A stretch of 28,361 bases of DNA, taken from IMG/VR virus record IMGVR_UViG_2698536339_000017, one strand, 5' to 3'. Under the pieces are notes generated by a model. The model searched no databases. It was not told the origin of the DNA and saw only the letters and a program-made list of their open reading frames with translations. The DNA comes from a virus. Taxonomy: Duplodnaviria > Heunggongvirae > Uroviricota > Caudoviricetes. The position numbers were made by a program, and so were the translations under genes. Each line of letters opens with the position of its first letter. Within the stretch, counting starts at the first letter, position 1. Below, in pieces: positions 1-25,629 of the stretch.

Positions 1-12
1 GGTTTGGGAGAA
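1..12 (-). other. Inner half of a Gin/Hin-type crossover site (site A); the window starts at the site centre so the outer half is not visible
   Basis: Bases 1-12 GGTTTGGGAGAA are the exact reverse complement of the half-site TTCTCCCAAACC found at 1890-1901 and 17570-17581. They encode G-L-G-E at the start of the alternative tail-fibre cassette. Confidence 0.6.
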
Positions 13-351
13 GCGGCTAAAAGAAATGTAGGGACAGGGGCGAATCAGATACCTGATATGGGTAGTTTTATGCTTTCTGCTTCAGTTCCTGGATATCAAA
101 AATTGCCATCCGGTTTAATTATTCAATGGGGGCCAATTGATGTTCCGCTGACGTCTCAGGACACAGTAACCTATTTTCCGATTGCATTTCCGAATAGATG
201 TCTGCGGGTATTTGCGACTCAGGATTACACTCCCGGCAGTGCAAATGTTGGCTATATAGCTTGTGCCGGTTATAACCAGGACCCGGTGAAATTTATTTCC
301 AGAGCAGGCGTACCCGGTATCGGTGCTTCATTTTTCGCATTAGGGTGTTAA
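1..351 (+). CDS. Alternative tail-fibre C-terminal cassette (Hv'), 5'-partial and promoterless in this orientation; would be fused to the constant part of H after segment inversion
   Basis: Open frame from base 1 ([13 protein letters not shown]...) to stop at 349-351. It begins with the same GLGE-encoding half-site as the variable part of H and is followed by its own tail-fibre assembly gene, as in Mu G-segment Sv'/U'. Confidence 0.65.
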
Positions 352-5439: not shown

Positions 5440-5443
5440 AAGA

Positions 5444-7212: not shown

Positions 7213-7213
7213 T

Positions 7214-7726: not shown

Positions 7727-7922
7727 AGTCCTCCCGCGAGATCTGCCCGTCGCGCAGAAGCTGGTAGGCTTTGTGTTTGTAGTACCAGTTGATAGCCAGC
7801 ATCAGCACACCAATCATCAGGCCACCCAGCGTTGAGGCATCCTTGATGGACAAATCGCCCAGCCAGGCCAGCACAACGGCGATGCAATACGTGATAAAGG
7901 CGCTGATTCGCTCAAGCGTCAT
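7707..7922 (-). CDS. Small two-TM holin (pinholin-like)
   Basis: 71 aa with two hydrophobic segments and a charged C-terminus. Sits immediately upstream of the SAR-type endolysin. Confidence 0.6.
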   Translation of the reverse strand: MTLERISAFITYCIAVVLAWLGDLSIKDASTLGGLMIGVLMLAINWYYKHKAYQLLRDGQISREDYESINR

Positions 7923-7925
7923 AAT

Positions 7926-8129
7926 TCAGTCCCATAGCTGGACGGTCTGCACGGTGGTGGTGGTCGGAATGTCCGGCAGCTCCACCTGCAGCCCGTGAGG
8001 TAAAAAAGGGCCAAATTCGGCAAGCCCCGGATTTGCCTTCAGTACCTGCTCCGTGACACCCTGCGTGCGCCCGTAATGACGCCAGCAAAGCGCGTCCACC
8101 GTGTCATACTGATGCGCACGCACTTTCAT
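7926..8129 (-). CDS. X: Tail protein X
   Basis: 67 aa, MKVRAHQYDTVDALCWRHYGRTQGVTEQVLKANPGLAEFGPFLPHG..., similar to P2 gpX. Confidence 0.85.
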   Translation of the reverse strand: MKVRAHQYDTVDALCWRHYGRTQGVTEQVLKANPGLAEFGPFLPHGLQVELPDIPTTTTVQTVQLWD

Positions 8130-8593
8130 CAGATAAGCTCCACTGTGCAGTGCGGCGCATCCTGTACCCGGCAGATGGCCCAGCGGGCGTCACGCCACAA
8201 ATCACCGCTGGCTTCTGCCAGTTCCTCGCCCCGCTTCACACCGGATGCCGTGGCGTCATAGTCCTGGTAACGTTCGTTGAGCATGGCGCGAGCCCAGCAG
8301 TAAACCGCGTTGAAATAGTGCTGAATTCGCTCGCTTTTCCCGTCCAGCTGTTCCGCCGGAACCTCTGCCAGCGAGGCATATCCCAGCATCTGCTGGCGTC
8401 TGCGAAACTCATACAGCTCTGCGTTGACCTCCGAAATTGCCGACAGCGCAACCTGCTTTAAACGCGGCTGCGTCACCGTGCCGTCAGTGCGCATCACACT
8501 GCGAAACTCCGACAGGTCCACATCAGGCCAGAACGGCGTATTTCTGATGATTTCCGCCTGTTCCGGTGCCTGTTCTGGCGCAACAAACTTCAT
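8129..8593 (-). CDS. L: Head completion/stabilisation protein L
   Basis: Similar to P2 gpL. Start set at MKFVAPEQ (8593), which has an AGGAG-type RBS upstream; the longest ORF extends to 8656. Confidence 0.75.
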   Translation of the reverse strand: MKFVAPEQAPEQAEIIRNTPFWPDVDLSEFRSVMRTDGTVTQPRLKQVALSAISEVNAELYEFRRRQQMLGYASLAEVPAEQLDGKSERIQHYFNAVYCWARAMLNERYQDYDATASGVKRGEELAEASGDLWRDARWAICRVQDAPHCTVELI

Positions 8594-8688
8594 GCTGCTT
8601 TCTCCTGAAATAGAGGGCGGTGGACGGGGTTTTGATGTGGCAGTGCCTTTCGCCACCCCGTGCCGCCCGTGCGCGGGGGCACGTTCTG

Positions 8689-9339
8689 TCAGCGGCTGTC
8701 ATTGCGCAGTCTGCGCTCCAGCTGCTGTTTGTCTTTTTTCACGCCACAGCGGGGATCGAGCTGCAACGCATGGTTGAGATGATTAAGGGCGGAAGCCGGA
8801 TTGCTTTCACTCAGGACAGCGCCAATCGCTTTATGCAGACGCGCCCGTGACTGGTCCGGCATATCCAGACCGTCTGTCAGCTCCAGCGTCTGCAACAACA
8901 GATCGGCATCAAAGCCGGTGGCGGCAAGCATTGCGCTCTGCGCGGCGTCTGACATTTCCTCTGCCAGCACGGTCTGCACATTGCGGTTACCCAGTGGCAT
9001 CACCCAGCCATGACGTAGGGCATGACGCCCGATCTCCAGCGCCCCGGCATAATCTCCGGCATCAATGCGCCACAGCATCACGTACATCAGCACGTCATCC
9101 TGTTGAGTGCCTCCGGCAGCCAGGACACCCTCTGCCCAGGCAGCGTATTTCGGCAGCAGCTCCACCTTGATTTCCGCTTTTTTGACCGTGGACTGAACGC
9201 CCTTGAGACGGCGGCGGTCTTCCGCCAGTTGCAGCAGCATCAGGTCATAGCCCGACGCGTGGCGAACACTGCCGCCCTCGCGGGCGGCCTGTTCAGCCTG
9301 AACGCGCAGGCGATGCTGCCGTGCGGGACTCAGGCTCAT
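8689..9339 (-). CDS. M: Terminase endonuclease (small) subunit M
   Basis: 216 aa with ...DDVLMYVMLWRIDAGDYAGALEIGRHALRHGWVMP..., similar to P2 gpM. Confidence 0.85.
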   Translation of the reverse strand: MSLSPARQHRLRVQAEQAAREGGSVRHASGYDLMLLQLAEDRRRLKGVQSTVKKAEIKVELLPKYAAWAEGVLAAGGTQQDDVLMYVMLWRIDAGDYAGALEIGRHALRHGWVMPLGNRNVQTVLAEEMSDAAQSAMLAATGFDADLLLQTLELTDGLDMPDQSRARLHKAIGAVLSESNPASALNHLNHALQLDPRCGVKKDKQQLERRLRNDSR

Positions 9340-9342
9340 GAA

Positions 9343-10401
9343 TTACGCTCCGGTTTCTGCTGCGGCGGCGCTGAAGTCGCCAATCTGGATGTTTTCCACC
9401 AGTGCGGCACAGCGGTAGTCCTCAACCACATAGGCTTCGTTAACGGATTCAAAGTTTTCAATCCGGTCACGTTTCGGGTTGTCGATAACTGAACGGCGGC
9501 GGGTGTCTTCCTGCCAGTAGATGGACAGGTTATCCAGACGGGTAATCAGCAGTGCATTCGGCGGGAAGAACGGCGCACGCACGGCCTGCAGGCCCCCCAT
9601 GCGTTTCTGGCTGATGATCATATCGGCAGCCAGTTTTTCACTGTTTTCCTGCTCTTTGTTGACCAGCGGGAAATACTTGTCAGACAGCAGTTCACGACCG
9701 CAAATCACCACCAGATCGTCATCGTCCTGGTAGACCACGTCGATAAGCTCATTGACGGCATCCATCACCACGGCGTCCAGGTTGGCATATTCGCCACCTT
9801 TCCCGACTTTCACTGCGCCCGGTGTGGTTTCACCGCCCGTGGTGGTGCTGCCCATGACGTGATCCGGTGCATCCTCACGGATTTTCTGCAGCCAGCCTTT
9901 ATTCACATCCTGCAGTAGCGGGTTTTCGCTACGGTTGGAGGTTTTCGCACGCTTCACGCCGTTAAAGCCGATCATGATGCGGTCCAGTGCCTGACGTTTC
10001 ACGATGGCGTCACGGATACGCACCTGAAAATCCTGAAACTTCGCCCACAGGTCCAGCTTCGCGTAGGTCAGCACCGTGTCAAAGTTGGTCTGCTCGCATT
10101 TATATTCCACATCGACCATCAGCGTCGGATCGACAGGTTCACGCTCTTTCGCGGTGGTATCAGTGGTTCCGGCAATGGTGCTGCCAACTCCCAACCCCAG
10201 CAGCTGACCGGACTGCTCAGTCACTGGCGTGACGTTAATCAGCGTCAGGAAAGCGGCGGACTGCTGGATCTGGTCTTCCAATGTCTGCTGCACGGACGGC
10301 TCTACGGTGAACTTGCTGGACAGTTCTTCAACTGCCACACCGTTCAGACGCGCCAGCTGCTGCAGGTAAGCGTTAAAAGCCAAGCGGGTATTCTTCTTCA
10401 T
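9343..10401 (-). CDS. N: Major capsid protein N
   Basis: 352 aa, similar to P2 gpN across its length. Confidence 0.9.
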   Translation of the reverse strand: MKKNTRLAFNAYLQQLARLNGVAVEELSSKFTVEPSVQQTLEDQIQQSAAFLTLINVTPVTEQSGQLLGLGVGSTIAGTTDTTAKEREPVDPTLMVDVEYKCEQTNFDTVLTYAKLDLWAKFQDFQVRIRDAIVKRQALDRIMIGFNGVKRAKTSNRSENPLLQDVNKGWLQKIREDAPDHVMGSTTTGGETTPGAVKVGKGGEYANLDAVVMDAVNELIDVVYQDDDDLVVICGRELLSDKYFPLVNKEQENSEKLAADMIISQKRMGGLQAVRAPFFPPNALLITRLDNLSIYWQEDTRRRSVIDNPKRDRIENFESVNEAYVVEDYRCAALVENIQIGDFSAAAAETGA

Positions 10402-10417
10402 CGGGTTTTGTGCTCCA

Positions 10418-11251
10418 TCAGCAATTGGTCAGAGTGTCAGCGGGGGCGTTACCGCCTGTTGCACGCTGGCGGTAGTCCTGGCGGCTGTCTTCATGACTCA
10501 GCTTATTCACCAGTTCGTTAAAGGCGGTCTGCTGTGCCTGCAGGGCAGTCTCCAGCTCAGACAGACGTTCTTCCTGCTCAGACAGGGATTTTTCGGTCCG
10601 TGCGCTCAGGTTCTGCTGCTCAGTGGCGACCAGCTCCACGGCCTTATGCACATCAGAGAACCGGGCATCGTCGGACTGCTCTTTTTTGGTGAACAGCGCC
10701 GTGACGCGGGCAAACAGGGACGGCTTGTCCTCCTGGATTTCTTCCAGTTCGATCACCGTTTCCTCTGCGGCGGTAAAGAGATTGGCGGGATTCTGCTTGC
10801 GGTTTGCCAGCGGGTTATGGGCTGCACTGGCGCTGAATGTCAGCATTTCAGTGCCCAGACTGGCAGGGTCATCAGTGGCAGCCAGCCCGACCAGGTAGGC
10901 TTTGCCCGTATCAGCAAACTTTGGGCTGACTTCCATAGAGGTGAATAATTTCTGGCCTTTTTTCACCAGATCCACCAGGGACTCTGTTGGCTCAACGTCG
11001 GCATACAGCGCCATCTTGCCTGCCAGCGGACCTTCCGTGATTTCTTCAGCAAACAGCGCCGTCACCTTGCCGTAGCGGTTAAAGGTGCTGTCCGGCAGAT
11101 AAGACTTGATGTGCTCAAGGTTAATCAGCGCGGTATACACCGCCGGGTTGTAGCTGGCTGCCATCTGTTCCAGCCATTCACGCTGGATTTCGCGTCCGTC
11201 GGTGGTGGCACCTTCCACCCCGATGCGAAAACGCTTTGCTTTCACTGTCAT
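10418..11251 (-). CDS. O: Capsid scaffolding protein O
   Basis: 277 aa; position and composition (acidic coiled-coil C-terminal part) match P2 gpO. Confidence 0.8.
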   Translation of the reverse strand: MTVKAKRFRIGVEGATTDGREIQREWLEQMAASYNPAVYTALINLEHIKSYLPDSTFNRYGKVTALFAEEITEGPLAGKMALYADVEPTESLVDLVKKGQKLFTSMEVSPKFADTGKAYLVGLAATDDPASLGTEMLTFSASAAHNPLANRKQNPANLFTAAEETVIELEEIQEDKPSLFARVTALFTKKEQSDDARFSDVHKAVELVATEQQNLSARTEKSLSEQEERLSELETALQAQQTAFNELVNKLSHEDSRQDYRQRATGGNAPADTLTNC

Positions 11252-11329
11252 GAGCCGTGCTCCGTTAGAAAAAACTTACTGGAGCCTTATGGTTGCGGTG
11301 ATGGGGGCAGTGAAACAATGCGCGGTATT

Positions 11330-11347
11330 TGTACCGACAACCACACA
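11330..11347. promoter_or_regulatory. TGT-N12-ACA Ogr-type late promoter box in the divergent P/O intergenic region
   Basis: TGTACCGACAACCACACA. Centre is about 87 bp from the O start codon, compatible with a -55 activator site plus about 30-nt leader for the O operon. No second clean box for P was found. Confidence 0.45.
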
Positions 11348-11393
11348 AACCGCAGGCGGGGAAAGCCTTCATTCAAGGCTGTAGGTTTGTGCC

Positions 11394-13160
11394 ATGAACA
11401 CCACACTGACACCCGCAGATCTCGATCCCCGTCGGCAGGCCATGCTGCTGTACTTTCAGGGATACCGCGTAGCCCGCATTGCTGAAATGCTGGGCGAGAA
11501 AGTTGCAACCGTTCACAGCTGGAAAAAACGCGACAAGTGGGGTGACTATGGGCCGCTGGATCAGATGCAGCTCACCACCGCCGCACGTTACTGCCAGCTC
11601 ATTATGAAGGAGCACAAAGAAGGGAAAGATTTCAAAGAAATTGATCTGCTGGCGCGCCAGTCGGAGCGCCACGCGCGGATCGGCAAGTTTAACAATGGCG
11701 GCAACGAAGCCGATTTAAACCCTAACGTCGCCAACCGCAACAAAGGCCCGCGCCGTCAGCCTGAAAAGAATGTTTTCACCGATGAACAGATTGAGAAGCT
11801 GGAAGAAATCTTCCATTCCTCCATGTTCAACTACCAGCGTCACTGGTGGGAAGCCGGAAAAACCAACCGCATCCGCAACCTGCTGAAGTCACGCCAGATC
11901 GGCGCGACCTTCTATTTTGCCCGTGAAGCCCTGATTGACGCCCTGCTAACCGGACGTAACCAGATTTTCCTTTCTGCCAGTAAGGCACAGGCGCACGTCT
12001 TTAAGCAGTACATCATCGACTTCGCCAAAGAAGTGGAAGTGGAGCTGAAAGGCGATCCGATGGTGCTTCCCAACGGGGCCACACTGTATTTCCTCGGCAC
12101 CAATGCCCGCACTGCCCAGAGTTACCACGGCAACCTGTATCTGGATGAATATTTCTGGATACCGAAATTCCAGGAGCTGCGCAAAGTGGCTTCCGGTATG
12201 GCTATTCACAAAAAATGGCGACAAACCTATTTTTCCACGCCATCCAGCCTGACCCACAGTGCTTATCCGTTCTGGTCCGGTGCGCTGTTCAACCGTGGAC
12301 GCAACAAAGCCGACAAGGTGGACATCGACCTGTCCCACAGCAATCTGGCCCCCGGCCTGCTGTGCGCAGACGGGCAATACCGCCAGATAGTCACCGTAGA
12401 AGATGCGGTGCGCGGCGGCTGTAACCTGTTCGACCTTGACCAGTTGCGCATGGAATACAGCCCGGACGAATACCAGAACCTGCTGATGTGTGAGTTCGTG
12501 GACGATCTCGCGTCCGTGTTCCCGCTCAGCGAGCTGCAGGCGTGCATGGTGGACAGTTGGGAAGTCTGGACCGACTTTCATGCACTGGCCCTGCGCCCGT
12601 TTGGCTGGCGCGAAGTGTGGATCGGTTATGACCCGGCAAAAGGTACGCAGAACGGCGACAGCGCCGGATGCGTGGTGGTGGCACCGCCAGCCGTGCCGGG
12701 CGGTAAGTTCCGCATTCTTGAGCGTCACCAGTGGCGCGGGATGGACTTCCGCGCCCAGGCTGATGCAATCAAAAAACTGACCGAGCAGTACAACGTGACC
12801 TACATCGGCATCGACTCGACAGGTGTCGGCCACGGGGTTTACGAGAACGTGAAAGCGTTTTTTCCAGCCGTCCGGGAGTTTGTCTACAACCCCAACGTTA
12901 AAAACGCCCTGGTACTCAAGGCCTACGACATTATCAGTCACCGTCGTCTGGAGTTTGACGCCGGACACACCGACATAGCGCAGTCATTTATGGCAATCCG
13001 TCGCGCCACCACCGCCAGCGGCAACCGCCCAACCTATGAAGCCAGCCGCAGCGAAGAAGCCAGCCATGCCGATCTGGCCTGGGCAACAATGCACGCACTG
13101 TTTAACGAACCGCTGCAGGGCGAGTCCGCCAATACCAGCAATATTGTGGAGATTTTTTGA
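11394..13160 (+). CDS. P: Terminase ATPase (large) subunit P
   Basis: 588 aa, similar to P2 gpP. Divergent from O as in P2. Confidence 0.9.
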   Translation: MNTTLTPADLDPRRQAMLLYFQGYRVARIAEMLGEKVATVHSWKKRDKWGDYGPLDQMQLTTAARYCQLIMKEHKEGKDFKEIDLLARQSERHARIGKFNNGGNEADLNPNVANRNKGPRRQPEKNVFTDEQIEKLEEIFHSSMFNYQRHWWEAGKTNRIRNLLKSRQIGATFYFAREALIDALLTGRNQIFLSASKAQAHVFKQYIIDFAKEVEVELKGDPMVLPNGATLYFLGTNARTAQSYHGNLYLDEYFWIPKFQELRKVASGMAIHKKWRQTYFSTPSSLTHSAYPFWSGALFNRGRNKADKVDIDLSHSNLAPGLLCADGQYRQIVTVEDAVRGGCNLFDLDQLRMEYSPDEYQNLLMCEFVDDLASVFPLSELQACMVDSWEVWTDFHALALRPFGWREVWIGYDPAKGTQNGDSAGCVVVAPPAVPGGKFRILERHQWRGMDFRAQADAIKKLTEQYNVTYIGIDSTGVGHGVYENVKAFFPAVREFVYNPNVKNALVLKAYDIISHRRLEFDAGHTDIAQSFMAIRRATTASGNRPTYEASRSEEASHADLAWATMHALFNEPLQGESANTSNIVEIF

Positions 13161-14185
13161 TGGGAAAGAGTAAAAAAAACCGCGTAGCGGCGATGAATCA
13201 GATCCAGCATAAAAGCCAGACTTCAGCCGAAGCATTCAGCTTCGGCGATCCCGTTCCTGTTCTGGACCGCCGTGAACTGCTGGACTATGTGGAATGCGTA
13301 CAGACAGATCGATGGTATGAGCCGCCAGTGAGTTTTGACGGGCTGGCGCGCACCTTTCGCGCCGCCGTGCATCACAGCTCACCGATTGCGGTGAAATGCA
13401 ATATTCTGACCAGTACCTACATCCCTCACCCGCTGCTCAGCCAGCAGGCTTTTTCACGTTTTGTGCAGGACTATCTGGTATTTGGTAACGCCTACCTGGA
13501 GAAACGCACGAACCGCTTCGGTGAAGTTATCGCCCTTGAGCCTGCTCTGGCAAAATACACCCGACGCGGGTTAGACCTGGATACCTACTGGTTTGTGCAA
13601 TACGGTATGACAACCCAGCCGTATCAGTTCACGAAAGGCAGCATTTTTCATCTGATGGAACCGGACATCAACCAGGAGATCTACGGCCTGCCAGGTTATC
13701 TTTCTGCCATTCCGTCAGCCCTGCTCAACGAGTCCGCCACGCTGTTCCGCCGGAAGTATTACATTAACGGCAGTCATGCAGGCTTCATCATGTACATGAC
13801 CGATGCCGCGCAGAACCAGGAGGATGTGAACAACCTCCGCAATGCGATGAAAAGCGCCAAAGGCCCTGGCAACTTCCGCAACCTGTTTATGTACTCGCCT
13901 AACGGCAAAAAGGACGGGCTTCAGATCATCCCGTTGTCAGAAGTCGCGGCGAAGGATGAATTTCTTAACATCAAGAACGTGAGTCGGGATGACATGATGG
14001 CAGCGCATCGTGTGCCGCCACAAATGATGGGGATAATGCCTAATAATGTTGGGGGATTTGGGGATGTAGAAAAAGCTAGTAAGGTATTTGTGAAAAATGA
14101 ATTATTACCATTACAAAAAAGAATGAAAGAATTTAATCATTGGAGCGGTGAAGAAATTATAAAATTCGAGAGATATCAAATTTAG
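13157..14185 (+). CDS. Q: Portal protein Q; last about 50 codons have AT-rich codon usage (recombinant 3' end)
   Basis: 342 aa, similar to P2 gpQ including the C-terminus. Codon composition switches abruptly to AT-rich near 14030. Confidence 0.9.
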   Translation: MMGKSKKNRVAAMNQIQHKSQTSAEAFSFGDPVPVLDRRELLDYVECVQTDRWYEPPVSFDGLARTFRAAVHHSSPIAVKCNILTSTYIPHPLLSQQAFSRFVQDYLVFGNAYLEKRTNRFGEVIALEPALAKYTRRGLDLDTYWFVQYGMTTQPYQFTKGSIFHLMEPDINQEIYGLPGYLSAIPSALLNESATLFRRKYYINGSHAGFIMYMTDAAQNQEDVNNLRNAMKSAKGPGNFRNLFMYSPNGKKDGLQIIPLSEVAAKDEFLNIKNVSRDDMMAAHRVPPQMMGIMPNNVGGFGDVEKASKVFVKNELLPLQKRMKEFNHWSGEEIIKFERYQI

Positions 14186-14191
14186 CAAAGT

Positions 14192-14206
14192 GCCTCTAAA
14201 AGAGGC
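14192..14206. terminator. Short hairpin between convergent Q and DprA-like gene stops (possible bidirectional terminator)
   Basis: GCCTCT-aaa-AGAGGC inverted repeat in the 24-bp gap. Stem is short, so termination efficiency is uncertain. Confidence 0.3.
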
Positions 14207-14209
14207 GCT

Positions 14210-15184
14210 TTAAATCAAGTCTAATGTACTCTGTTTCCCTGGCCATTTTAGCTCTAACAAATACTCCCGGGACTCATTTATGATCATAATCACATCATCA
14301 TAATCCCGTTTTGTTTTTAGCGCTCTAGCCATGTTGCTCTTAACTAAATCAACTGTTCCCTCACAATTAAGATTAAGCGGATTATTAGGTAGGTGAGGTA
14401 CAACCGCAAACACTGGTCTTTTCGCCTTATTTGCAAACTCAGCTTGAGTTATCGTTCCGCTATTTAACGCAGCCTCGATTAAAATTGAACCTGCAGATAA
14501 TCCAACTTGTATCCGATTTCTTTGTACAAATGATTGTTTCTGGGCCGGCCGACCCATAGGATACTCAGAAATCCATGCACCACCTTTATCCAGAATCTCT
14601 TGAGCAAGTCGACTGTTTTGCTTCGGCTTAGCCTCCTCAAGACCATGCGCCAAGACAGCAATGGTTTTTCCTTTTGCCTGTAACGTTGCCTTGTGGGCAT
14701 TCGCATCAGTGCCTATTGCTAACCCACTTACAACAATATACCCAGCAGACACTATCTGATTAGTGATCCGCCTCGTTATTTCTTCCCCTGCAGGGGAGGT
14801 ATCACGGGATCCTACAATTGCGACACCCGGCAATTCTTTGAGTATACTTTTATCCCCTTTTATGTAGAGAATTGATGGTGGATTAGGAGTAAAAGCTAAA
14901 CTAAGAGGATAGAATTCAGACCCATATGGTATTAGCTCCACACCATTAACATGGTGGTTCTCCAATTCAGCGTTCGCTATTAGAAAATCAGTCTCAGATA
15001 TTTTATCTTTTAGAAACCCGTGGCTATTAACCATCTCAGTTAAGTCGCGTATATCACGAATAACATCAAAATCGATAAGCTCAAAGAATTTTAATACACT
15101 TTGATCAGATGCTAGCTTCCCGATTTGAATAGCTAATCCAAGTGTATTTTTTAATTCTTCTGAGTGCACTTTGCTACTCCTCAT
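14210..15184 (-). CDS. DprA/Smf-like Rossmann-fold protein (DNA_processg_A / SLOG-type domain) with about 110-aa N-terminal extension
   Basis: 324 aa with motifs GVAIVGSRDTSPAGEE...GYIVVSGLAIGTDANAHKATLQAKGKTIAVLAHGLE...GGAWISEYPMG...QRNRIQVGLSAGSILIEAALNSGT, matching the conserved DprA core. AT-rich codon usage. Overlaps the upstream gene by 11 bp. Confidence 0.8.
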   Translation of the reverse strand: MRSSKVHSEELKNTLGLAIQIGKLASDQSVLKFFELIDFDVIRDIRDLTEMVNSHGFLKDKISETDFLIANAELENHHVNGVELIPYGSEFYPLSLAFTPNPPSILYIKGDKSILKELPGVAIVGSRDTSPAGEEITRRITNQIVSAGYIVVSGLAIGTDANAHKATLQAKGKTIAVLAHGLEEAKPKQNSRLAQEILDKGGAWISEYPMGRPAQKQSFVQRNRIQVGLSAGSILIEAALNSGTITQAEFANKAKRPVFAVVPHLPNNPLNLNCEGTVDLVKSNMARALKTKRDYDDVIMIINESREYLLELKWPGKQSTLDLI

Positions 15185-15749
15185 AGTTTGCAGTTTCTAG
15201 CAGAGCTAATGGCATTATAACTCCAGCTCCTGCAGACTCCAGTAAATAAAAACACGCAGACAAACTACCGCCTGTTGTTTTAACATCATCTAGTAGTAAC
15301 ACATTTCGCCCCATGAGGTTACCACCCCTAACTCTGATACTAGACATGTGACCAGTAATTGAGCGATCTCCTCCTTCACGATGTGCGCTAGGAACAGTGC
15401 GTGTTCTTTCCAAACAGCAATCAACAATGCCCCGACGGTGAACATTTACGATTCGCTCGGCGACCTCAATCAAAGCCGGTGAAATTCTGCCTTCAGTGTG
15501 AGACGGGACAACTGCTATCGAAAAAGGAGACTCAACAAAACGCCCACCGCCACCTCTGATTACTAACCGCCCAACCTTATCTATAGCTAATCGAGAAAAA
15601 CGGTTAATGGCCCTTTGATGATTACGATTATTTTCATCCTTAAAATCCATCATCTGCCTTGATAGTTCATCGCTATGAGGGTTGCGCTCTCCCAAATGCC
15701 AGTAGGGGTGATACAAGCCACACGATGTAATACTTACGGGTAAAAGCAT
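15174..15749 (-). CDS. ComF-like phosphoribosyltransferase-domain protein
   Basis: 191 aa with a PRPP-binding-type motif NVLLLDDVKTTGGSL near the C-terminus. No obvious N-terminal four-Cys zinc finger. Weak RBS, so the exact start is uncertain. First gene of a two-gene operon with the DprA-like gene. Confidence 0.7.
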   Translation of the reverse strand: MLLPVSITSCGLYHPYWHLGERNPHSDELSRQMMDFKDENNRNHQRAINRFSRLAIDKVGRLVIRGGGGRFVESPFSIAVVPSHTEGRISPALIEVAERIVNVHRRGIVDCCLERTRTVPSAHREGGDRSITGHMSSIRVRGGNLMGRNVLLLDDVKTTGGSLSACFYLLESAGAGVIMPLALLETANYEE

Positions 15750-15879
15750 TCTTTATTCTCATGTAGTCCTAACTCAAACAATGTTAAGCGAAATGATATT
15801 TCATAGACAAACACAAATTTAAGAATAATCTCAATGATCACATTTTTGATTATGAAACAAAGCCAAGAGTTAGCGCGCG

Positions 15880-15898
15880 CTCGTATCCCCGCCACGCC
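15880..15898 (-). other. Candidate cos (cohesive end) core inside a GC-rich island
   Basis: Minus strand reads GGCGTGGCGGGGATACGAG followed by CGCGCGCTAAC. The first 13 nt match the P2/186-family cohesive-end sequence GGCG(A/T)GGCGGGGA as I recall it, and the following GCGCGCT(A/G)AC resembles the sequence next to P2 cos. The island is GC-rich within AT-rich surroundings. Memory-based, not aligned. Confidence 0.35.
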
Positions 15899-16277
15899 TG
15901 CCCGCTTTATGCAGTGGTTTTCATGCACATGCATGACATGAGCAAAAGCCCGCCAGTTCTGGCGGATCTGAGCAAAGACGATCCTCAATCGATCATGCGA
16001 TTTCATGCAGCATAGTCATGCACTGTCAAGGAAGTGAAAATCCGTATCTGAATGGCCACTTGAAAAACGGATCATACGGGTTTACAAAGATGAATGTTCG
16101 CTGTGAACGGGAAGCGGAAGTTAACTTTCAGATAACATAATCCATATGCACGAGAACCTCTAAAATAGAATGGGACACCTAAGCGGGGTACTTACAACGA
16201 TTCTTTCCATATTCACAGTTAACACTCTGTTTGGCGTATTTTTATTCAAATAGCAAACACCAATAAAAGGAGTTTCC

Positions 16278-16559
16278 ATGAACAATATTCCCCCTATACC
16301 ACAGTTAGGAATTTATGTCTCAAAAATCGATCCCACCCTACGTATCACTGTAACCGATGTTGATATTGTTGATGGTGAGGATGATTCTCCTGATGATGAA
16401 TTGTTTTATTTAGTCCACTGGATCGAGGGGGAAGATGAAAGTGATATGACAGCAATGGGATTTGAGCTAGACCCAGTAGAGTGGCAGGCTTTCGTTGAAT
16501 CTGAGCAATTAGTGTTTGAGCGTGATGATCCTACCCACGTAATATGGACACAGGCCTAA
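16278..16559 (+). CDS. Small, very acidic protein of unknown function; native 3' end replaced by IS3 terminal sequence
   Basis: Good RBS (AAAAGGAG) 6 bp upstream of ATG. About 82 native codons with roughly 29 percent Asp/Glu. The last 11 codons (PTHVIWTQA and stop) are encoded by the IS3 terminal inverted repeat starting at 16526. Confidence 0.5.
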
Positions 16560-17422
16560 GCGAGGTTCTTGTTTTCAAATTGTTCCGGACTGAGGCCGCC
16601 ACACCAACTGTGCCGCCGCCACCGATTGTAATCACATTCGATATAATTAAACACCGTTGCCCGCATTATTTCCCGGCTGATAAAGTGTTCTCCATGGATA
16701 CATTCCACTTTCAGCGAATGAAAGAAGCTTTCCACGCAGGCATTATCGTAGCAGCAACCTTTTGCGCTCATACTTCCACGCAGATTATGCCGCTTCAGTT
16801 GCGCCTGATAATCTGCTGAACAGTACTGGCCTCCACGGTCCGTGTGAACGATAACGTTCCGGGGCCTCTTACGCCGCCACAGCGCCATCTGCAGGGCATC
16901 GCAGGCCAGTTGCGCCGTCATGCGTGGCGACATTGACCAGCCAATAACGGCACGTGACCACAGGTCAATGACCACTGCCAGATACAGCCAGCCTTCATCT
17001 GTACGTAAGTACGTGATGTCTCCTGCCCACTTCTGGTTCGGGCCACTGGCGTAAAAATCCTGCTCCAACAGATTTTCTGACACAGGCAGGCCGTGTGCGC
17101 GGTAGCTGACCGGGCTGAACTTCCGGGAGGCCTTTGCCCTCAGTCCCTGACGGCGCAGGCTTGCCGCCACGGTTTTTACGTTAAAGGGGTAACCCTGAGC
17201 ACGCAGTTCATCCGTCAGGCGTGGGGCACCGTAACGCTGTTTTGACCGGGTAAAAGCCGCGAGGACAACGCTGTCGCAGTGTTGGCGGAACTGCTGACGC
17301 GTGCTTATCCTTGTCCGCCGCTGACACCACGTATACCAGCCGCTGCGGGCCACCCGGAGCACGCGGCACATTGCTTTGATGCTGAACTCAGCCTGATGTT
17401 TTTCAATAAAGACATACTTCAT
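16556..17422 (-). CDS. insF: IS3 transposase orfB (InsF-type, DDE integrase domain)
   Basis: 288 aa; sequence recognised as IS3 orfB. Normally expressed as an OrfAB frameshift fusion, which the truncated orfA here cannot provide. Confidence 0.85.
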
Positions 17423-17567
17423 TTCAGGCGCTTCGCGAAGTATGTCGCGGCCTTTTGGAGGATAGCCAGCTCTTCATCCCGTTCTGCCAGCTGGCGTTTG
17501 AGACGTGCAATCTCGGTAGACATCTCCAGTTCACGTTCAGAAGACGTCTGCTGATTTTGCTGTTTAC
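17419..17567 (-). pseudogene. insE: IS3 orfA (InsE-type) remnant, N-terminally truncated
   Basis: Encodes only the C-terminal part ...[48 protein letters not shown]; HTH-containing N-terminus and promoter absent. Confidence 0.75.
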
Positions 17568-17569
17568 AC

Positions 17570-17595
17570 TTCTCCCAAACCAACGTTTATGAAAA
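17570..17595 (+). other. Gin/Hin-type crossover site adjacent to the invertase gene (site C)
   Basis: TTCTCCCAAACC-AA-CGTTTATGAAAA; about 20 of 26 positions match hixL (TTCTTGAAAACCAAGGTTTTTGATAA) as I recall it. Left half identical to the tail-fibre half-sites. Lies 55 bp upstream of the invertase start. Confidence 0.65.
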
Positions 17596-17650
17596 TGCAG
17601 AGATAACGGCTAACTGGCATCATCTCCGGTTTTTATTCAGGAGGATGATC

Positions 17651-18217
17651 ATGCTTATTGGCTATGTACGCGTGTCAACAAATGACCAGAACACCGATTT
17701 GCAACGCAATGCACTGAACTGTGCGGGATGTGAGCGGATTTTTGAGGATAAAATCAGTGGCACCAAGTCCGACAGACCGGGGCTGAAAAAGCTGCTCAGG
17801 ACACTATCGGCAGGAGACACGCTGGTTGTCTGGAAGCTGGACAGACTGGGGCGCAGTATGCGGCATCTTGTTACGCTGATAGAAGAGCTGCGCCAGCGTG
17901 GCGTGAATTTCCGAAGCCTGACTGACAGTATTGATACCAGCACCCCAATGGGCCGTTTCTTTTTTCATGTCATGGGTGCCCTGGCTGAAATGGAACGCGA
18001 ACTGATAGTTGAACGTACCAGGGCGGGGCTGGCTGCAGCTCGTGCTAAAGGCAGAGTAGGTGGACGCCGTCCTAAGTTGACCAGCGAACAGTGGGCACAG
18101 ATTGGGCGTTTACTCGAGGCCGGAGAATCAAGACAGCGTATTGCACTGATTTTTGATGTAGGCGTTTCTACCATTTATCGAAAATTTCCGGCAAATAAGA
18201 ACAATAAATCTCCCTGA
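17651..18217 (+). CDS. Serine recombinase DNA invertase, Gin/Pin/Cin/Hin family
   Basis: MLIGYVRVSTNDQNTDLQRNAL... with catalytic Ser in VRVST and a C-terminal HTH (GVSTIYRKF). Near-identical in motif content to Mu Gin as I recall it. RBS AGGAGG upstream; an in-frame ATG at 17645 is an alternative start. Confidence 0.9.
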   Translation: MLIGYVRVSTNDQNTDLQRNALNCAGCERIFEDKISGTKSDRPGLKKLLRTLSAGDTLVVWKLDRLGRSMRHLVTLIEELRQRGVNFRSLTDSIDTSTPMGRFFFHVMGALAEMERELIVERTRAGLAAARAKGRVGGRRPKLTSEQWAQIGRLLEAGESRQRIALIFDVGVSTIYRKFPANKNNKSP

Positions 18218-18265
18218 ATCAGCTTTATTTTGATTATCCCTGAAAGCAGACAAATACCGTCATTT

Positions 18266-18283
18266 TGTGTGAATAACGGTACA
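18266..18283 (+). promoter_or_regulatory. TGT-N12-ACA Ogr-type late promoter box for the FI operon
   Basis: TGTGTGAATAACGGTACA centred about 85 bp upstream of the FI start codon, the expected -55 position with about 30-nt leader. Confidence 0.5.
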
Positions 18284-18359
18284 ACTGCGCTTAGCTGTTT
18301 GTCAGGCACAATCACTTCAACATAGGGCGAAGCCTAATCCAATCAGGAGGTTCGCCACT

Positions 18360-19532
18360 ATGGCTCAGGATTACCACCACGGGGTGCGCGTTGTTGAAGT
18401 CAACGAAGGCACCCGATCCATTACCACGGTGAGCACCGCCATCGTGGGTATGGTCTGCACGGGCGATGATGCCGATGCAAAAATGTTTCCTCTTAATAAA
18501 CCCGTGCTGATCACTGATGTGCTGACTGCCAGCGGTAAAGCGGGTGAGTCAGGCACGCTGGCTCGTTCGCTGGATGCCATCGCTGACCAGGCAAAACCCG
18601 TGACCGTTGTTGTGCGTGTGCCGCAGGGTGAAACGGAAGAAGAAACCACGACCAATATCATCGGAGCAGTGACCGCTGAAGGTAAAAAAACAGGCATGAA
18701 AGCCCTGTTATCTGCCCAGTCACAGCTCGGCGTTAAACCGCGCATTCTCGGCGTGCCAGGTCACGACACGAAGGCGGTAGCTACTGAGTTGCTGAGCGTG
18801 GCGCAAAGCCTGCGTGGATTTGCTTACCTGTCAGCGTATGGTTGCAAGACAGTGCAGGAAGCAATCACTTACCGTGAAAACTTCAGTCAGCGTGAAGGAA
18901 TGCTGATCTGGCCCGACTTTACTGGCTGGGACACGGTGCTGAATGCCGAAGCAACGGCTTATGCCACCGCCCGTGCGCTTGGTCTGCGCGCCAAAATTGA
19001 CGAGCAGACCGGATGGCACAAAAGCCTGTCCAACGTGGGCGTTAACGGTGTCACCGGAATTTCTGCTGATGTGTTCTGGGATCTGCAGGACCCGGCAACC
19101 GATGCGGGACTGCTGAACCAGAACGACGTCACCACCCTTATCCGCAAAGACGGTTTTCGCTTCTGGGGTTCCCGCTGCCTGAGTGATGACCCGCTCTTTG
19201 CCTTCGAAAACTACACCCGCACGGCGCAGGTGCTGACGGACACGATGGCAGAAGCGCACATGTGGGCGGTGGATAAACCGCTGAATCCGTCGCTGGCCCG
19301 CGACATTATCGAGGGTATCCGCGCCAAAATGCGCAGCCTGGTCAGTCAGGGCTATCTCATTGGTGGTGATTGCTGGCTGGATGAGTCGGTGAACGACAAA
19401 GACACGCTGAAAGCCGGAAAACTCACCATCGACTACGACTACACGCCAGTGCCGCCACTTGAAAACCTGATGCTGCGTCAGCGCATCACCGATCAGTACC
19501 TGGTGAATTTCTCCAGCCAGGTCAGCGCGTAA
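18360..19532 (+). CDS. FI: Tail sheath protein FI
   Basis: 390 aa, similar to P2 gpFI. Confidence 0.9.
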
Positions 19533-19541
19533 GGGGACAAC

Positions 19542-20057
19542 ATGGCTTTACCACGCAAATTAAAACACCTGAACCTGTTTAATGACGGGAACAACTGGCA
19601 GGGGATCGTTGAGTCGCTGACGCTGCCGAAATTTACCCGCAAATATGAGAAGTATCGCGGTGGCGGAATGCCGGGTGCAGTGGATGTGGATCTGGGGCTG
19701 GATGACGGCGCACTGGATACGGAATTTTCCATTGGTGGTACTGAACTGCTGCTGTTTAAGCAGATGGGCAAAGCCACGGTGGATGGTATCCAGTTGCGCT
19801 TTACCGGCTCTATCCAGCGTGACGATACCGGGGAAGTGCAGGCCGTGGAGCTTGTGGTGCGTGGACGTCACAAAGAAGTGGATTCCGGCGAGTGGAAGAC
19901 GGGCGAAAGCAACACCACCAAAGTGACCAGTACCAACAGCTACGCGAAGCTGACTATAAATGGTGAGGTGCTCTATGAAGTGGACCTTATCAACATGGTG
20001 GAAATTGTGGACGGTGTGGACCTGATGGAAGCGCACCGCAACGCCCTCGGCCTCTGA
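19542..20057 (+). CDS. FII: Tail tube protein FII
   Basis: 171 aa, similar to P2 gpFII. Confidence 0.9.
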   Translation: MALPRKLKHLNLFNDGNNWQGIVESLTLPKFTRKYEKYRGGGMPGAVDVDLGLDDGALDTEFSIGGTELLLFKQMGKATVDGIQLRFTGSIQRDDTGEVQAVELVVRGRHKEVDSGEWKTGESNTTKVTSTNSYAKLTINGEVLYEVDLINMVEIVDGVDLMEAHRNALGL

Positions 20058-20111
20058 TGTATCTGAACGGCGCGGGATACCGCGCCAGAACCCAATTTAC
20101 AGGACAGCAAA

Positions 20112-20414
20112 ATGAGCGATAAGCAGACTGAAAAGACCATTCAACTGGATACCCCCATCAAGCGCGGTAAAACAGAAATCACCGAAATTGTGCTGCGTAA
20201 ACCGCAGTCCGGTGCGCTGCGCGGTACACGCCTGCAGGCCATTATGGATATGGATGTAAACGCGATGATGACCGTGATCCCCCGCATCTCCAGTCCGGCA
20301 CTGACTGCACAGGAAATTGCAGAGATGGACCCGGCAGATCTCACTGCCATGTCGGTTGAGGTTGTCACTTTTTTGTTGAAGAAGTCGGTGCTTGCCGGTT
20401 TACCGACAGCCTGA
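20112..20414 (+). CDS. E: Tail assembly chaperone E
   Basis: 100 aa; position between FII and T. Contains the slippery heptamer near its 3' end. Confidence 0.8.
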   Translation: MSDKQTEKTIQLDTPIKRGKTEITEIVLRKPQSGALRGTRLQAIMDMDVNAMMTVIPRISSPALTAQEIAEMDPADLTAMSVEVVTFLLKKSVLAGLPTA

Positions 20415-20548
20415 CGGTTGACGATCTGGTGGCAGATATCGCCACCATTTTTCACTGGCCGCCATCCGTTACTGACGTTATGCCGCTGACCGAAGTGCTG
20501 GAATGGCGGTATAAAGCGATTCAGAGAAGCGGGGCCAACGATGAGTGA
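20112..20548 (+). CDS. E+E': E+E' fusion product made by programmed -1 ribosomal frameshift at T-TTT-TTG (20369-20375)
   Basis: Slippery sequence TTTTTTG sits in the zero frame as acT TTT TTG. The -1 frame stays open from 20375 to a stop at 20546-20548, overlapping the T start, giving about 145 aa as in P2 E+E'. Confidence 0.7.
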
Positions 20549-23500
20549 TAACAACCTGCGTCTGCAGGTCATTCTTAATGCGGTTGACAAGCTCACCCGC
20601 CCATTTCGATCTGCGCAGGCCAGTTCAAGAGAACTGGCTGCTGCTGTCAAAAAATCCCGCGATGCAATAAAGCAGCTTGATCAGGCCGGGAGCAGTCTGG
20701 ACAGCTTCCGAAAGCTGCAGGCAGAAAATCAGAAATTAGGCGACAGGCTGAACTATGCCCGCCAGCGTGCAAATTTGCTCAGTCAGGAACTGGGAGCGAT
20801 GGGGCCGCCTTCGCAACGTCAGGTTGTTGCTCTGGGCCGTCAACGGCTGGCTGTTCAGCGCCTGGAAGAACGCCAGAAAAAGCTGCAGCAGCAGACGGCG
20901 CTTGTGCGTGCTGAACTGTACCGGGCGGGAATTTCTGCGAAAGACGATGCGGGAGCAACTGCCCGTTTAGCCCGTGAAACATCACGTTATAACCAGGAAC
21001 TTTCGAAACAGGAGGCGCGGCTGAAGCGACTGGGGGAAGCTCAGCGCAGGATGAATGCAGCGCGTGCCAGTTATGCCCGTTCGCTGGAGGTGCGTGATCG
21101 TATTGCAGGTGCCGGAGCCACCACCACGGCTGCAGGGCTGGCAATGGGTGCGCCAGTGATGGCGGCAGTAAAAAGCTATACCAGCATGGAAGATGCCATG
21201 AAAGGTGTGGCAAAGCAGGTCAATGGTCTGCGTGACGATAATGGCAACCGCACTGCACGTTTTTATGAAATGCAGGATGCCATCAAGGCTGCCAGCGAAC
21301 AGTTGCCGATGGAAAACGGTGCGGTGGACTTCGCTGCACTGGTTGAAGGTGGTGCGCGCATGAACGTCGCAAACCCTCACGACAGCTGGGAAGATCAGAA
21401 ACGTGACCTGCTGGCCTTCGCCAGTACGGCAGCAAAGGCGGCAACAGCCTTTGAGCTGCCAGCGGATGAACTGTCAGAAAGTCTGGGGAAAATCGCCCAG
21501 CTCTACAAAATCCCCACCCGCAATATTGAACAGCTCGGTGATGCGCTGAACTATCTGGATGATAACGCCATGTCGAAAGGGGCAGACATCATTGATGTGA
21601 TGCAACGTCTGGGCGGTGTGGCTGACCGTCTGGATTATCGTAAAGCGGCGGCGCTGGGTTCCACCTTCCTGACACTGGGCGCTGCGCCAGAGGTTGCAGC
21701 CAGTGCAGCAAACGCGATGGTGCGTGAATTGTCCATTGCCACCATGCAAAGCAAGAGTTTCTTTGAAGGGATGGATCTGCTGAAACTCAATCCTGAAGTG
21801 ATTGAAAAGCAGATGACGAAGGATGCGATGGGAACCATCCAGCGCGTGCTGGAGAAGGTAAACGCGCTGCCGCAGGACAAGCGCCTGTCTGCCATGACTA
21901 TGTTGTTTGGTAAAGAGTTTGGCGATGACGCGGCGAAACTGGCAAACAACCTGCCGGAACTGCAGCGTCAGTTAAAACTGACAGCGGGCAATGATGCGCT
22001 CGGCTCCATGCAGAAAGAATCCGACATTAACAAGGATTCACTTTCTGCGCAGTGGTTGCTGGTCAAAACCGGAGCGCAGAACACCTTCAGCAGCCTGGGC
22101 GAAACGCTGCGCCAGCCGCTGATGGATATTCTGTACACGGTGAAAAGCGTCACGGGGGCGTTGCGTCGCTGGGTGGAAGCTAACCCGGAACTGACAGGCA
22201 CACTGATGAAAGCATCGGCTGTTGTGGCTGCGGTTACCGTCGGCCTCGGCACCTTAGCGGTGGCGCTGGCTGCAGTGCTGGGGCCGCTGGCAGTGATCCG
22301 TCTGGGATTCTCTGTGTTGGGTATCAAAACGTTATCTTCCGTTACGGCAGCAGTAACTCGAACCAGCAGCGCGTTGTCCTGGCTGGCTGGCGCGCCACTG
22401 GCACTGCTGCGACGCGGGCTTGCTTCATCGGGCAACGCCGCAGGTTTACTTACTGCGCTGTTGTCGTCTTTGCGCCGCACGGCATCACTGACGGGAAATG
22501 TCCTGAAAACTGTAGCAGGTGCGCCGGTTGCACTTTTGCGGTCTGGATTATCCGGTTTACGTGCTGTTGCTGTGATGTTTATGAATCCTCTGGCGGTACT
22601 GCGCGGTGGACTGGCCGCCGCAGGCACGGTGCTGCGAGTACTGGCATCTGGTCCACTGGCGATGCTGCGCGTTGCCCTGTATGCCATATCTGGTCTGTTA
22701 GGTGCTCTGCTCAGTCCGATAGGTCTTGTGGTTACTGCACTGGCGGGCGTGGCGCTGGTTGTCTGGAAATACTGGCAACCCATCACCGCATTTCTCGGTG
22801 GCGTGGTGGAAGGATTCAAAGCGGCGGCAGGTCCCATCAGTGCAGCGTTCGAACCGCTTAAGCCCGTGTTCCAGTGGATTGGCGACAAAGTGCAGGCGCT
22901 GTGGGGCTGGTTTACTGATCTGCTGACGCCCGTTAAGTCGACCTCTGCCGAACTGCAGAGCGCAGCGGCCATGGGGCGACGATTCGGGGAGGCACTGGCA
23001 GAAGGGCTGAATATGGTCATGCATCCGCTGGACTCCCTGAAATCCGGCGTTTCCTGGTTGCTGGAGAAACTCGGCATTGTCAGTAAAGAGGCTGCAAAGG
23101 CGAAACTGCCGGAAAGCGTGACGCGTCAGCAACCTGCGACGGTGAAGGCAGACGGTAAAGTGATGATGCCATCGGGTGATTTTCCGTCATGGGGATATGG
23201 CTTTGCGGGGATGTATGACAGCGGCGGCTATATCCCGCGCGGGCAGTTTGGCATCGTCGGTGAAAACGGGCCGGAAATTGTTAACGGCCCGGCAAACGTG
23301 ACCAGCCGGAGAAATACAGCTGCACTGGCTGCCGTTGTCGCCGGAATGATGGGTGTTGCTGCCGCGCCAGCAGAGCTTCCACCGTTGCATCCTTTGGCGC
23401 TTCCCGCAAAAGGCGGTGAAGCGATGGTGAGTCGTGCAGCTAGTGTGCCGCCCATTTACCGGATTGAAGCACCGACGCAGATCATCATCCAGACACAGCC

Positions 23501-23618
23501 AGGACAAAGTGCGCAGGATATTGCGCGGGAGGTGGCCCGCCAGCTTGATGAACGTGAACGCAGGCTGAAGGCAAAAGCCAGGAGTAACTACAGCGATCAG
23601 GGGGGATACGACGCATGA
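20541..23618 (+). CDS. T: Tail tape measure protein T
   Basis: 1025 aa with N-terminal coiled-coil region, a central hydrophobic Gly/Ala/Leu-rich repeat region and C-terminal domain; position between E and U. Confidence 0.9.
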   Translation: MSDNNLRLQVILNAVDKLTRPFRSAQASSRELAAAVKKSRDAIKQLDQAGSSLDSFRKLQAENQKLGDRLNYARQRANLLSQELGAMGPPSQRQVVALGRQRLAVQRLEERQKKLQQQTALVRAELYRAGISAKDDAGATARLARETSRYNQELSKQEARLKRLGEAQRRMNAARASYARSLEVRDRIAGAGATTTAAGLAMGAPVMAAVKSYTSMEDAMKGVAKQVNGLRDDNGNRTARFYEMQDAIKAASEQLPMENGAVDFAALVEGGARMNVANPHDSWEDQKRDLLAFASTAAKAATAFELPADELSESLGKIAQLYKIPTRNIEQLGDALNYLDDNAMSKGADIIDVMQRLGGVADRLDYRKAAALGSTFLTLGAAPEVAASAANAMVRELSIATMQSKSFFEGMDLLKLNPEVIEKQMTKDAMGTIQRVLEKVNALPQDKRLSAMTMLFGKEFGDDAAKLANNLPELQRQLKLTAGNDALGSMQKESDINKDSLSAQWLLVKTGAQNTFSSLGETLRQPLMDILYTVKSVTGALRRWVEANPELTGTLMKASAVVAAVTVGLGTLAVALAAVLGPLAVIRLGFSVLGIKTLSSVTAAVTRTSSALSWLAGAPLALLRRGLASSGNAAGLLTALLSSLRRTASLTGNVLKTVAGAPVALLRSGLSGLRAVAVMFMNPLAVLRGGLAAAGTVLRVLASGPLAMLRVALYAISGLLGALLSPIGLVVTALAGVALVVWKYWQPITAFLGGVVEGFKAAAGPISAAFEPLKPVFQWIGDKVQALWGWFTDLLTPVKSTSAELQSAAAMGRRFGEALAEGLNMVMHPLDSLKSGVSWLLEKLGIVSKEAAKAKLPESVTRQQPATVKADGKVMMPSGDFPSWGYGFAGMYDSGGYIPRGQFGIVGENGPEIVNGPANVTSRRNTAALAAVVAGMMGVAAAPAELPPLHPLALPAKGGEAMVSRAASVPPIYRIEAPTQIIIQTQPGQSAQDIAREVARQLDERERRLKAKARSNYSDQGGYDA

Positions 23619-24100
23619 TGATGGTGCTGGGATTGTACGTGTTTATGCTGCGCACCGTGCCATATCAGGAGCTGCAGTATCAACGCAGCTGGCGACATGC
23701 GGCAAACAGCCGGGTAAACCGACGTCCGTCCACGCAGTTTCTGGGACCGGACAACGACATGCTGACGCTTTCCGGTGTTCTTATGCCGGAGATAACAGGT
23801 GGCAGGCTGTCGTTGCTGGCACTGGAGCAGATGGCAGAACAGGGGAAAGCATGGCCCCTGATTGAAGGCAGTGGCACGATTTATGGCATGTATGTGATTG
23901 AGGGACTGAATCAGACTAAAACGGAGTTTTTCCGCGACGGTATGCCGCGCCGGATTGAGTTCACCCTGTCGCTCAAACGGGTGGATGAATCCCTGTCCGA
24001 TATATTCGGTGATCTCAGTGCGCAACTGAATAATCTGCAGGACACAGCAACGTCTGCCTTAAGCGATATCAGTAAAGCGGTGGGAGGGCTGCTGTCATGA
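23615..24100 (+). CDS. U: Tail protein U
   Basis: 161 aa; position and similarity to P2 gpU. Confidence 0.85.
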   Translation: MMMVLGLYVFMLRTVPYQELQYQRSWRHAANSRVNRRPSTQFLGPDNDMLTLSGVLMPEITGGRLSLLALEQMAEQGKAWPLIEGSGTIYGMYVIEGLNQTKTEFFRDGMPRRIEFTLSLKRVDESLSDIFGDLSAQLNNLQDTATSALSDISKAVGGLLS

Positions 24101-25197: not shown

Positions 25198-25287
25198 TTC
25201 TTCGCAATGGAGAACTTTTAAGTTTGCAAAATGGAATAATGCGGTATCATTATTGTGAATTTAGCAAAAATGGGGAGAACTCGAAAA

Positions 25288-25506: not shown

Positions 25507-25586
25507 CGCTGCCGCCATTTTGTCGCCATCGTTAAAAAACAGTGTTTCTAACATCATGATTTTAAACAGCTTAAATTTCAGGCAAC

Positions 25587-25629
25587 AAAAAACCCATCAA
25601 CCTTGAACCGAAATGGCGGGGTTGATGGG
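25587..25629 (-). terminator. Rho-independent terminator of ybjL
   Basis: 10-bp perfect inverted repeat CCCATCAACC / GGTTGATGGG (25593-25602 and 25620-25629), followed on the minus strand by TTTTTTGTT. Confidence 0.6.

Follow-up and report, generated by a model that had tools for sequence, protein, structure and literature searches.

The window analysed here, i.e., the whole 28,361-nucleotide stretch of the IMG/VR record IMGVR_UViG_2698536339_000017, contains genes for homologues of the P2 portal protein and of both terminase subunits, a ShosTA operon, a conserved block of sequence, a small acidic ORF and an IS3 fragment (Table 1). Specifically, the gpP-type and gpM-type terminase subunits are encoded by the same element as the block, which we predict to be the cos site, and the order in the window is cos, ShosTA, Q, P and O, N, M, L, with Q-P divergent from O-N-M-L. 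The same prophage is present between rcdA and ybjL in E. coli AMSHJX01 (NZ_CP030939.1), where the near-identical sequence has the canonical order A, DinI, ORF, cos, ShosTA, Q. On the right-hand side of the window the prophage ends just past ogr (25194-25388), as in P2 lysogens, and the host flank comprises ybjL, ybjM and grxA (25742-28361), the edge of the window being the grxA start codon.

Table 1. Features of the window that bear on the predicted cos site and its neighbours (positions in the window).
Feature	Position	Strand	Evidence or remark
Invertase crossover sites	1891-1916 (gene H) and 17570-17595		
Small terminase, P2 gpM homologue, expected cos recogniser	8689-9339	-	PF05944 Phage_term_smal; phrog_74 5.2e-88
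Large terminase, P2 gpP homologue, expected cos cutter	11394-13160	+	Pfam Terminase_5, Terminase_6N, Terminase_6C (source contig annotation)
Portal gene, P2 gpQ homologue	13157-14185	+	Pfam Phage_portal; stop 1694 bp from the 19-mer
shosA, DprA-like antitoxin	14210-15184	-	PADLOC ShosA 2.8e-70; Pfam DNA_processg_A 1.4e-60
shosT, PRTase-type toxin of ShosTA	15174-15749	-	PADLOC ShosT 3.7e-14; phrog_7188 4.5e-83
AT-rich spacer, cos to shosT, presumed cargo promoter region	15750-15871	-	28% GC
Whole conserved block, predicted cos	15872-16024	-	~126 bp right-end side + 19-mer + ~7 bp left-end side
Predicted cos core, ~56 nt (GTGCATGAAAACCACTGCATAAAGCGGGCA + 19-mer + CGCGCGC)	15873-15928	-	Counterpart of the P2-family/P4 55-bp core
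Predicted 19-nt cohesive end, GGCGTGGCGGGGATACGAG	15880-15898	-	Homology to the mapped 186 and P2/P4 ends
Predicted nick, minus strand	between 15899 and 15898	-	5' overhang
Predicted nick, plus strand	between 15879 and 15880	+	5' overhang
Six GCATG/TGCAT motifs, two clusters	starts 15922, 15928, 15931, 15994, 16004, 16017 (15922-16021)	-	
Conserved palindrome, TCCGCCAG-AA-CTGGCGGG, then CTTTTG	15949-15966	-	Terminator scan
Small acidic ORF, DUF8087 (PF26332)	16278-16559	+	phrog_17127 2e-70; right-end side of cos
IS3 fragment, 1042 bp	16526-17567	-	100% identical to E. coli A28 IS3; rve/HTH_21 transposase

The first-pass annotation had pointed to a GC-rich island with a cos-like core in otherwise AT-rich sequence. 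The stretch 15871-15970 indeed has 59% GC, compared with 28% in 15750-15871 and 39% in 16025-16277 on its two sides. The conserved block (15872-16024) has 54% GC, which matches the phage core, i.e., 54% for the P-Q genes and 53% for the whole window. Hence, the contrast to the AT-rich flanks stands, but the cos block is no unusually GC-rich element; the "island" is core DNA lying between two low-GC accessory regions.

Both strings that had been noticed are present on the minus strand: the predicted cohesive-end 19-mer GGCGTGGCGGGGATACGAG is read from 15898 to 15880 and is directly followed by CGCGCGCTAAC from 15879 to 15869. For comparison, the circular junctions of P2 (NC_001895), 186 (NC_001317) and the satellite P4 (NC_001609) were rebuilt from the annotated ends of the records. 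The window aligns with the P2, P4 and 186 termini on both sides of the cut. Before the cut it reads ...GCATGAAAACCACTGCATAAAGCGGGCA where 186 reads ...GCATTAAAACCGACCCATAAAGTGGGCA, and both continue with GGCGTGGCGGGGA; across the whole junction (slashes mark the limits of the overhang) 186 has ...GCATTAAAACCGACCCATAAAGTGGGCA/GGCGTGGCGGGGAAAGCAT/TGCGCGC and the window ...GCATGAAAACCACTGCATAAAGCGGGCA/GGCGTGGCGGGGATACGAG/CGCGCGC. The 19-mer is identical to the mapped 186 end at 15 of 19 positions, with the first 13 nt being the same, and to the P2/P4 end at 14 of 19, while its final six nucleotides, TACGAG, correspond to AAGCAT in 186 and AAGCAC in P2. It is a GC-rich predicted 19-nt end homologous to the P2-family form GGCG(A/T)GGCGGGGAAAGCA(C/T). 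Over both strands of the window, 15880-15898 is the unique best match to the 186 and P2 19-mers, and the next-best sites reach 13-14 of 19 positions of the P2-family 19-mers.

The similarity extends beyond the overhang into a core of about 55 bp across the cut, and the invariant positions flank the 19-mer on both sides, with the pattern shared with P2/P4 being GCAT.AAAACC...AAG.GGGC./GGCG.GGCGGGGA.A..A./.GCGCGC. Over the 56-nt core (-30 to +26) the identity is 43/56 to P2, 43/56 to P4, 44/56 to 186 and 54/56 to SEN8. A 55-bp core common to P2 and P4 is attributed to Ziermann & Calendar 1990 in passages of PMC5694545, PMC9594776 and PMC3931495. The resemblance to the P2/186 cohesive end that had been pointed out in the first-pass annotation is therefore borne out, and the alignment with the termini of P2, 186 and relatives shows that the island matches P2-family cos regions.

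The closest counterparts are SEN8, Fels-2 and Cartapus, in which the 19-mer is identical at all 19 positions and the 26-mer GGCGTGGCGGGGATACGAGCGCGCGC is likewise the same. Their right arm is also that of the window, including the GCATG repeats and the dyad, CCGCCAG/CTGGCGG, and so is the order DinI side, cos, cargo and portal Q; the only difference lies in the flanking cargo on either side of cos, which here includes ShosTA. With 186 the window shares the conserved flanks ...CATAAAG(C/T)GGGCA before and ...GCGCGC after the overhang as well as a similar dyad, CGCCAGAGCTGGCG, whereas in 186 the final six nucleotides of the overhang differ and about 176 bp without cargo separate cos from the portal gene W. 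P2 and P4 have in common with the window a GC-rich 19-nt 5' cohesive end; P2 differs in its short cos-Q interval and in that its accessory genes, old and tin, lie towards the right end from cos.

Among deposited phage records, only that of SEN8 starts at the site, together with that of Cartapus at a 32-nt offset, and both starts were set by homology. The SEN8 record begins at the 19-mer, its final base aligns to window position 15899, and positions 1..19 are labelled "putative cos site"; the SEN8 paper gives the same 19-mer, the cos having been found "by annotation". The label in the Cartapus record is "putative cos site, homologous to the cos of P2 phage". To set ends by analogy to P2 is usual practice in the field, e.g. 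for Smp131, and the exact nick positions at 15880-15898 are here likewise predicted by homology.

In blastn searches the block (15868-16024) was found in 85-89 P2-like phage records with 84-91% identity and E-values down to 1e-53. The exact 19-mer occurs in at least 120 IMG/VR contigs, and since it is internal in all of these carriers, the contigs give no independent evidence on the physical ends. Among 114 distinct relatives bearing the 19-mer, the identity to the window per alignment column amounts to 0.65-1.0 within 16024..15872 and to 0.12-0.41 beyond these limits, with the similarity dropping to near-random at 15871 and at 16025. The unit so delimited consists of a right arm of about 126 bp, the 19-mer and about 7 bp on the left-end side. 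Conservation bounded by variable sequence is the pattern to be anticipated where a cis-acting site is set amid variable cargo. In Fels-2, 500465-1, SEN8, Cartapus, E. coli A28 and AMSHJX01 the block has the A/DinI end on one side and cargo plus portal Q on the other, and all of the 85 IMG/VR loci have the portal gene downstream of it on the other strand. One metagenomic locus (IMGVR_UViG_3300011853_000021) carries the cos block twice, at 3447-3465 and 6704-6722, the copies being 3.2 kb apart and oppositely oriented. Both are embedded in inverted repeats that have diverged (81-97%), and sheath-gene sequence directly adjoins the terminase region; most likely, two related phages were joined in assembly to give this chimeric two-cos locus.

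Taken together, the block at 15872-16024 is very probably the cos site of a 186/Fels-2-type P2-family (Peduoviridae) prophage of E. coli, integrated beside ybjL. Two other assignments of the block were considered. One is that it codes for protein, as an ATG-initiated ORF of 90 aa (15734-16006, minus strand) spans it and a "hypothetical protein" is annotated over the homologous block in some phage records. This ORF has no match to a Pfam family, the substitutions show no codon-position bias (0.108/0.097/0.104), in-frame stops are present in 54 of the 114 relatives, and the conservation limits (16024..15872) do not coincide with the ends of the ORF; it was consequently rejected as a gene, and we regard a coding block as exceedingly improbable. 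The other is that the block represents the cos of a P4-like satellite and not that of a helper-type phage. P4 does have the same type of core (43/56, as above), but the flanks here consist of P2-family structural genes and ShosTA and not of psu, delta, sid and alpha, and the region is collinear with the complete P2-like prophage in AMSHJX01, which leaves next to no likelihood for a satellite origin.

The right arm of the predicted cos contains two kinds of repeated or symmetrical elements. The six GCATG/TGCAT motifs compare with 0.24 expected in shuffled sequences, where six were reached in 1 of 2000 shuffles, and TGCAT motifs are also present in the right arms of P2, P4 and 186. The dyad is conserved and on the plus strand reads CCGCCAG-TT-CTGGCGG at 15950-15965 within an 18-nt element at 15949-15966. 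The hairpin given in the first-pass annotation is thus there, but its loop is not "ttc"; it is TT, or GTTC with a 6-bp stem. The commonest form of the dyad among the relatives is a 9-bp stem, GCCCGCCAG/CTGGCGGGC. A terminator scan picks up the dyad on the minus strand, oriented so that it would end transcripts coming from the early genes and approaching cos, and we infer such a stop as its role; alternatively, it may be a protein-binding site. As a strong structure it was discarded: the predicted RNA hairpin has a free energy of -13.3 kcal/mol with a z-score of only -0.98, and the stem variants in the relatives lack convincing compensatory changes. Moreover, an Rfam search of 15600-16400 at E≤1 found no structured-RNA family. 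The GCATG motifs and the dyad are candidates for cosB-like elements recognised by the small terminase subunit.

The hairpin together with its T-run (minus strand, 15966..15949) and the annotated terminator t95b in the right arm of 186 also allow for the block to be only a terminator or regulatory region that ends the early operon, with the packaging site being located elsewhere. This would leave the 19-mer and the core homology to mapped cohesive ends unexplained, the hairpin fold is unexceptional, and the window has no other P2-family cos-like site; we therefore consider it very unlikely, and continue with the block as the predicted cos.

The cargo between the predicted cos and the portal gene had been described as a PRTase/DprA-like operon, and with PADLOC it could be identified as ShosTA. 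The DprA-like shosA is preceded immediately upstream, in the same operon, by the PRTase-domain shosT; the two genes overlap by 11 nt and shosA is convergent with portal Q. The match of shosT to Pfam Pribosyltran (1.2e-3) is under the curated cutoff. ShosTA is a characterised type IV toxin-antitoxin defence system (Millman 2022; PMC11961720; PMC12961424), and neutralisation of the toxicity by the antitoxin as well as protection against phage have been shown for homologues (PMC9122126, PMC11961720). The operon in the window resembles these in that its two genes overlap and code for a predicted PRTase toxin and a predicted DprA-like antitoxin; it differs in ShosT, which is 191 aa long and aligns to positions 62-211 of a PADLOC profile of 237 positions. 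A promoter scan of the AT-rich spacer gave no minus-strand match to the sigma-70 consensus for shosTA. In the RefSeq annotations of AMSHJX01 and E2348/69 the DprA-like gene is called while shosT is left unannotated (17526-18618 of the AMSHJX01 locus, corresponding to 15185-16277 of the window), so that the toxin half of ShosTA is absent from both annotations. Both strains have a cos-ShosTA region identical to that of the window. The AMSHJX01 prophage (NZ_CP030939.1) also has genes for a DUF4276 protein and an AAA ATPase between the integrase and CI genes (18019-19766), and this pair looks like another defence-type cargo, in an int-proximal slot.

The first-pass annotation had taken the cos-to-Q interval to be normally short. 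This applies only to P2 and 186 (~170-180 bp): over 85 IMG/VR loci of the lineage the distance from cos to the portal stop ranges between 163 and 3535 bp with a median of 1657 bp, and the 1694 bp of the window are in keeping with this. Variable, non-homologous cargo directly flanks the conserved cos between gpA and gpQ, and the slot occupied here by ShosTA holds a TIR-domain gene in phage 500465-1, a 1.7-kb hypothetical gene in Fels-2, a hypothetical and an HNH gene in SEN8, and a DUF4145 gene in Cartapus and E. coli A28. PMC5694545 credits Dodd & Egan 1996 and Nakayama 1999 with the proposal that the cosL-Q slot is a hotspot of foreign genes. The gpA-cos-gpQ region was later mapped as a defence hotspot of P2-like phages by Rousset et al. 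2022 (PMC9122126), where a DprA+PRTase system from the cos-proximal hotspot was found to protect against T7 and lambda, and a 2026 NAR survey confirms this hotspot (PMC13586616). The arrangement in the window has no substantive difference from that described by Rousset et al., with the cargo adjoining cos between the end of the replication genes and the portal gene.

On the opposite side of cos, as had been noted, is the small acidic ORF. It has 23 D+E and three K+R among its 93 aa and is transcribed away from cos, like old and tin of P2. IS3 cuts it at 16526, and the 93 aa compare with 111 aa in AMSHJX01. The IS3 fragment has an intact terminal inverted repeat at 16526 and lacks 216 bp on the orfA side, and the single base that follows it (17568, "A") belongs neither to IS3 nor to the prophage.

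Comparison with the AMSHJX01 prophage revealed a further rearrangement. Window 1-16526 is its reverse complement, with one mismatch, while 17569-28361 is collinear with it and 100% identical. Consequently, about 17.5 kb (window 1-17568, with breakpoints at the window start and at 17567/17569) are inverted relative to the part with the invertase, sheath and ogr genes, and the inverted piece comprises the invertible tail-fibre segment and the baseplate, lysis, head, terminase and portal genes, ShosTA, cos and the acidic ORF. Each edge of the inversion has the 13-nt inner half-site of the tail-fibre invertase crossover sites, CTTCTCCCAAACC, at 1-13 (as reverse complement) and at 17569-17581. Of the complete crossover sites, one, TTCTCCCAAACC-AA-GGTATGCGAGAA, is within the tail-fibre gene H, and the other, TTCTCCCAAACC-AA-CGTTTATGAAAA, precedes the serine invertase gene (17645-18217); because of the rearrangement they are direct and not inverted repeats in the window.

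The source of the window is the draft contig CYEZ01000004.1 (GCA_001285445.1), in which window position 1 is contig position 3, i.e., the contig begins midway through a Gin/Pin-type crossover site, with 2 nt preceding the window. Since the contig starts at such a site, the inversion might have arisen in assembly. Many unrelated draft assemblies break at this very crossover site and have the same partial tail-fibre product at position 3 from a contig end, and 345 of 375 index blocks represent contigs under 2 kb; short-read assemblies are therefore split systematically at the invertible segment. The junction between the IS3 end and the crossover site is absent from all 5426 complete E. coli genomes searched. 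A clean origin by invertase, with recombination between the crossover site and a pseudo-site in IS3, was rejected on two grounds: the native inner half-site persists at 17570-17581, and beyond the breakpoint IS3 (TGCGCCAGTTG...) bears no similarity to the crossover site. The inversion is thus either a strain-specific event or an assembly artefact, and the identity of cos and its local neighbours are unaffected either way. That it is real, with the cos, ShosTA and the head, lysis and baseplate genes residing on a segment bounded by invertase crossover half-sites, appears doubtful to us; if so, the Gin/Pin-type invertase of the phage or an IS3-linked event would have flipped half of the genome, and in virions from this strain the genes would be in a permuted order, the sheath operon then lying beside cos at the right end.

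The IS3 insertion and the inversion relative to an otherwise identical prophage (window 1-16526) also bear on whether the site is still in use. It might be a genuine cos by descent that is now silent and never cut here, the prophage being defective or rearranged: only 628 bp separate the cut from the IS3 fragment, by which the DUF8087 ORF is truncated, and the early region (int, CI and A) is outside the window. Against this, the structural, lysis and terminase ORFs in the window are all intact and 99.99-100% identical to those of the AMSHJX01 prophage, the breakpoints affect non-essential DNA, inverting part of a circular replicon is not in itself enough to stop cutting at cos, and the inversion may be an artefact of assembly. 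We consider a silent cos unlikely.

If the site is in use, the terminase formed by the gpM and gpP homologues would, after excision and replication of the prophage, bind the right arm of about 126 bp (15899-16024) with its GCATG motifs and dyad. It would then introduce staggered nicks on either side of GGCGTGGCGGGGATACGAG (15898→15880), and the virion DNA would thereby receive 5' cohesive ends of 19 nt. From its left end this DNA would read 19-mer, AT-rich spacer, shosT, shosA and portal Q. The two low-GC slots on either side of the core block make up the known cos-proximal hotspot, with one slot holding ShosTA and the other the DUF8087 ORF, here disrupted by IS3.

The cos core, the cargo slot between cos and Q, and the presence of a DprA+PRTase pair (ShosTA) in this slot have all been published already and, judged by its sequence, the feature described here is a typical P2-family cos in the published arrangement. 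Its location explains the contrast in GC content, as core DNA placed between low-GC cargo. Moreover, it fixes the predicted ends of the virion DNA. Finally, the predicted cos splits the gpA-gpQ hotspot into two slots, one at the left end with ShosTA and one at the right end with the DUF8087 ORF.
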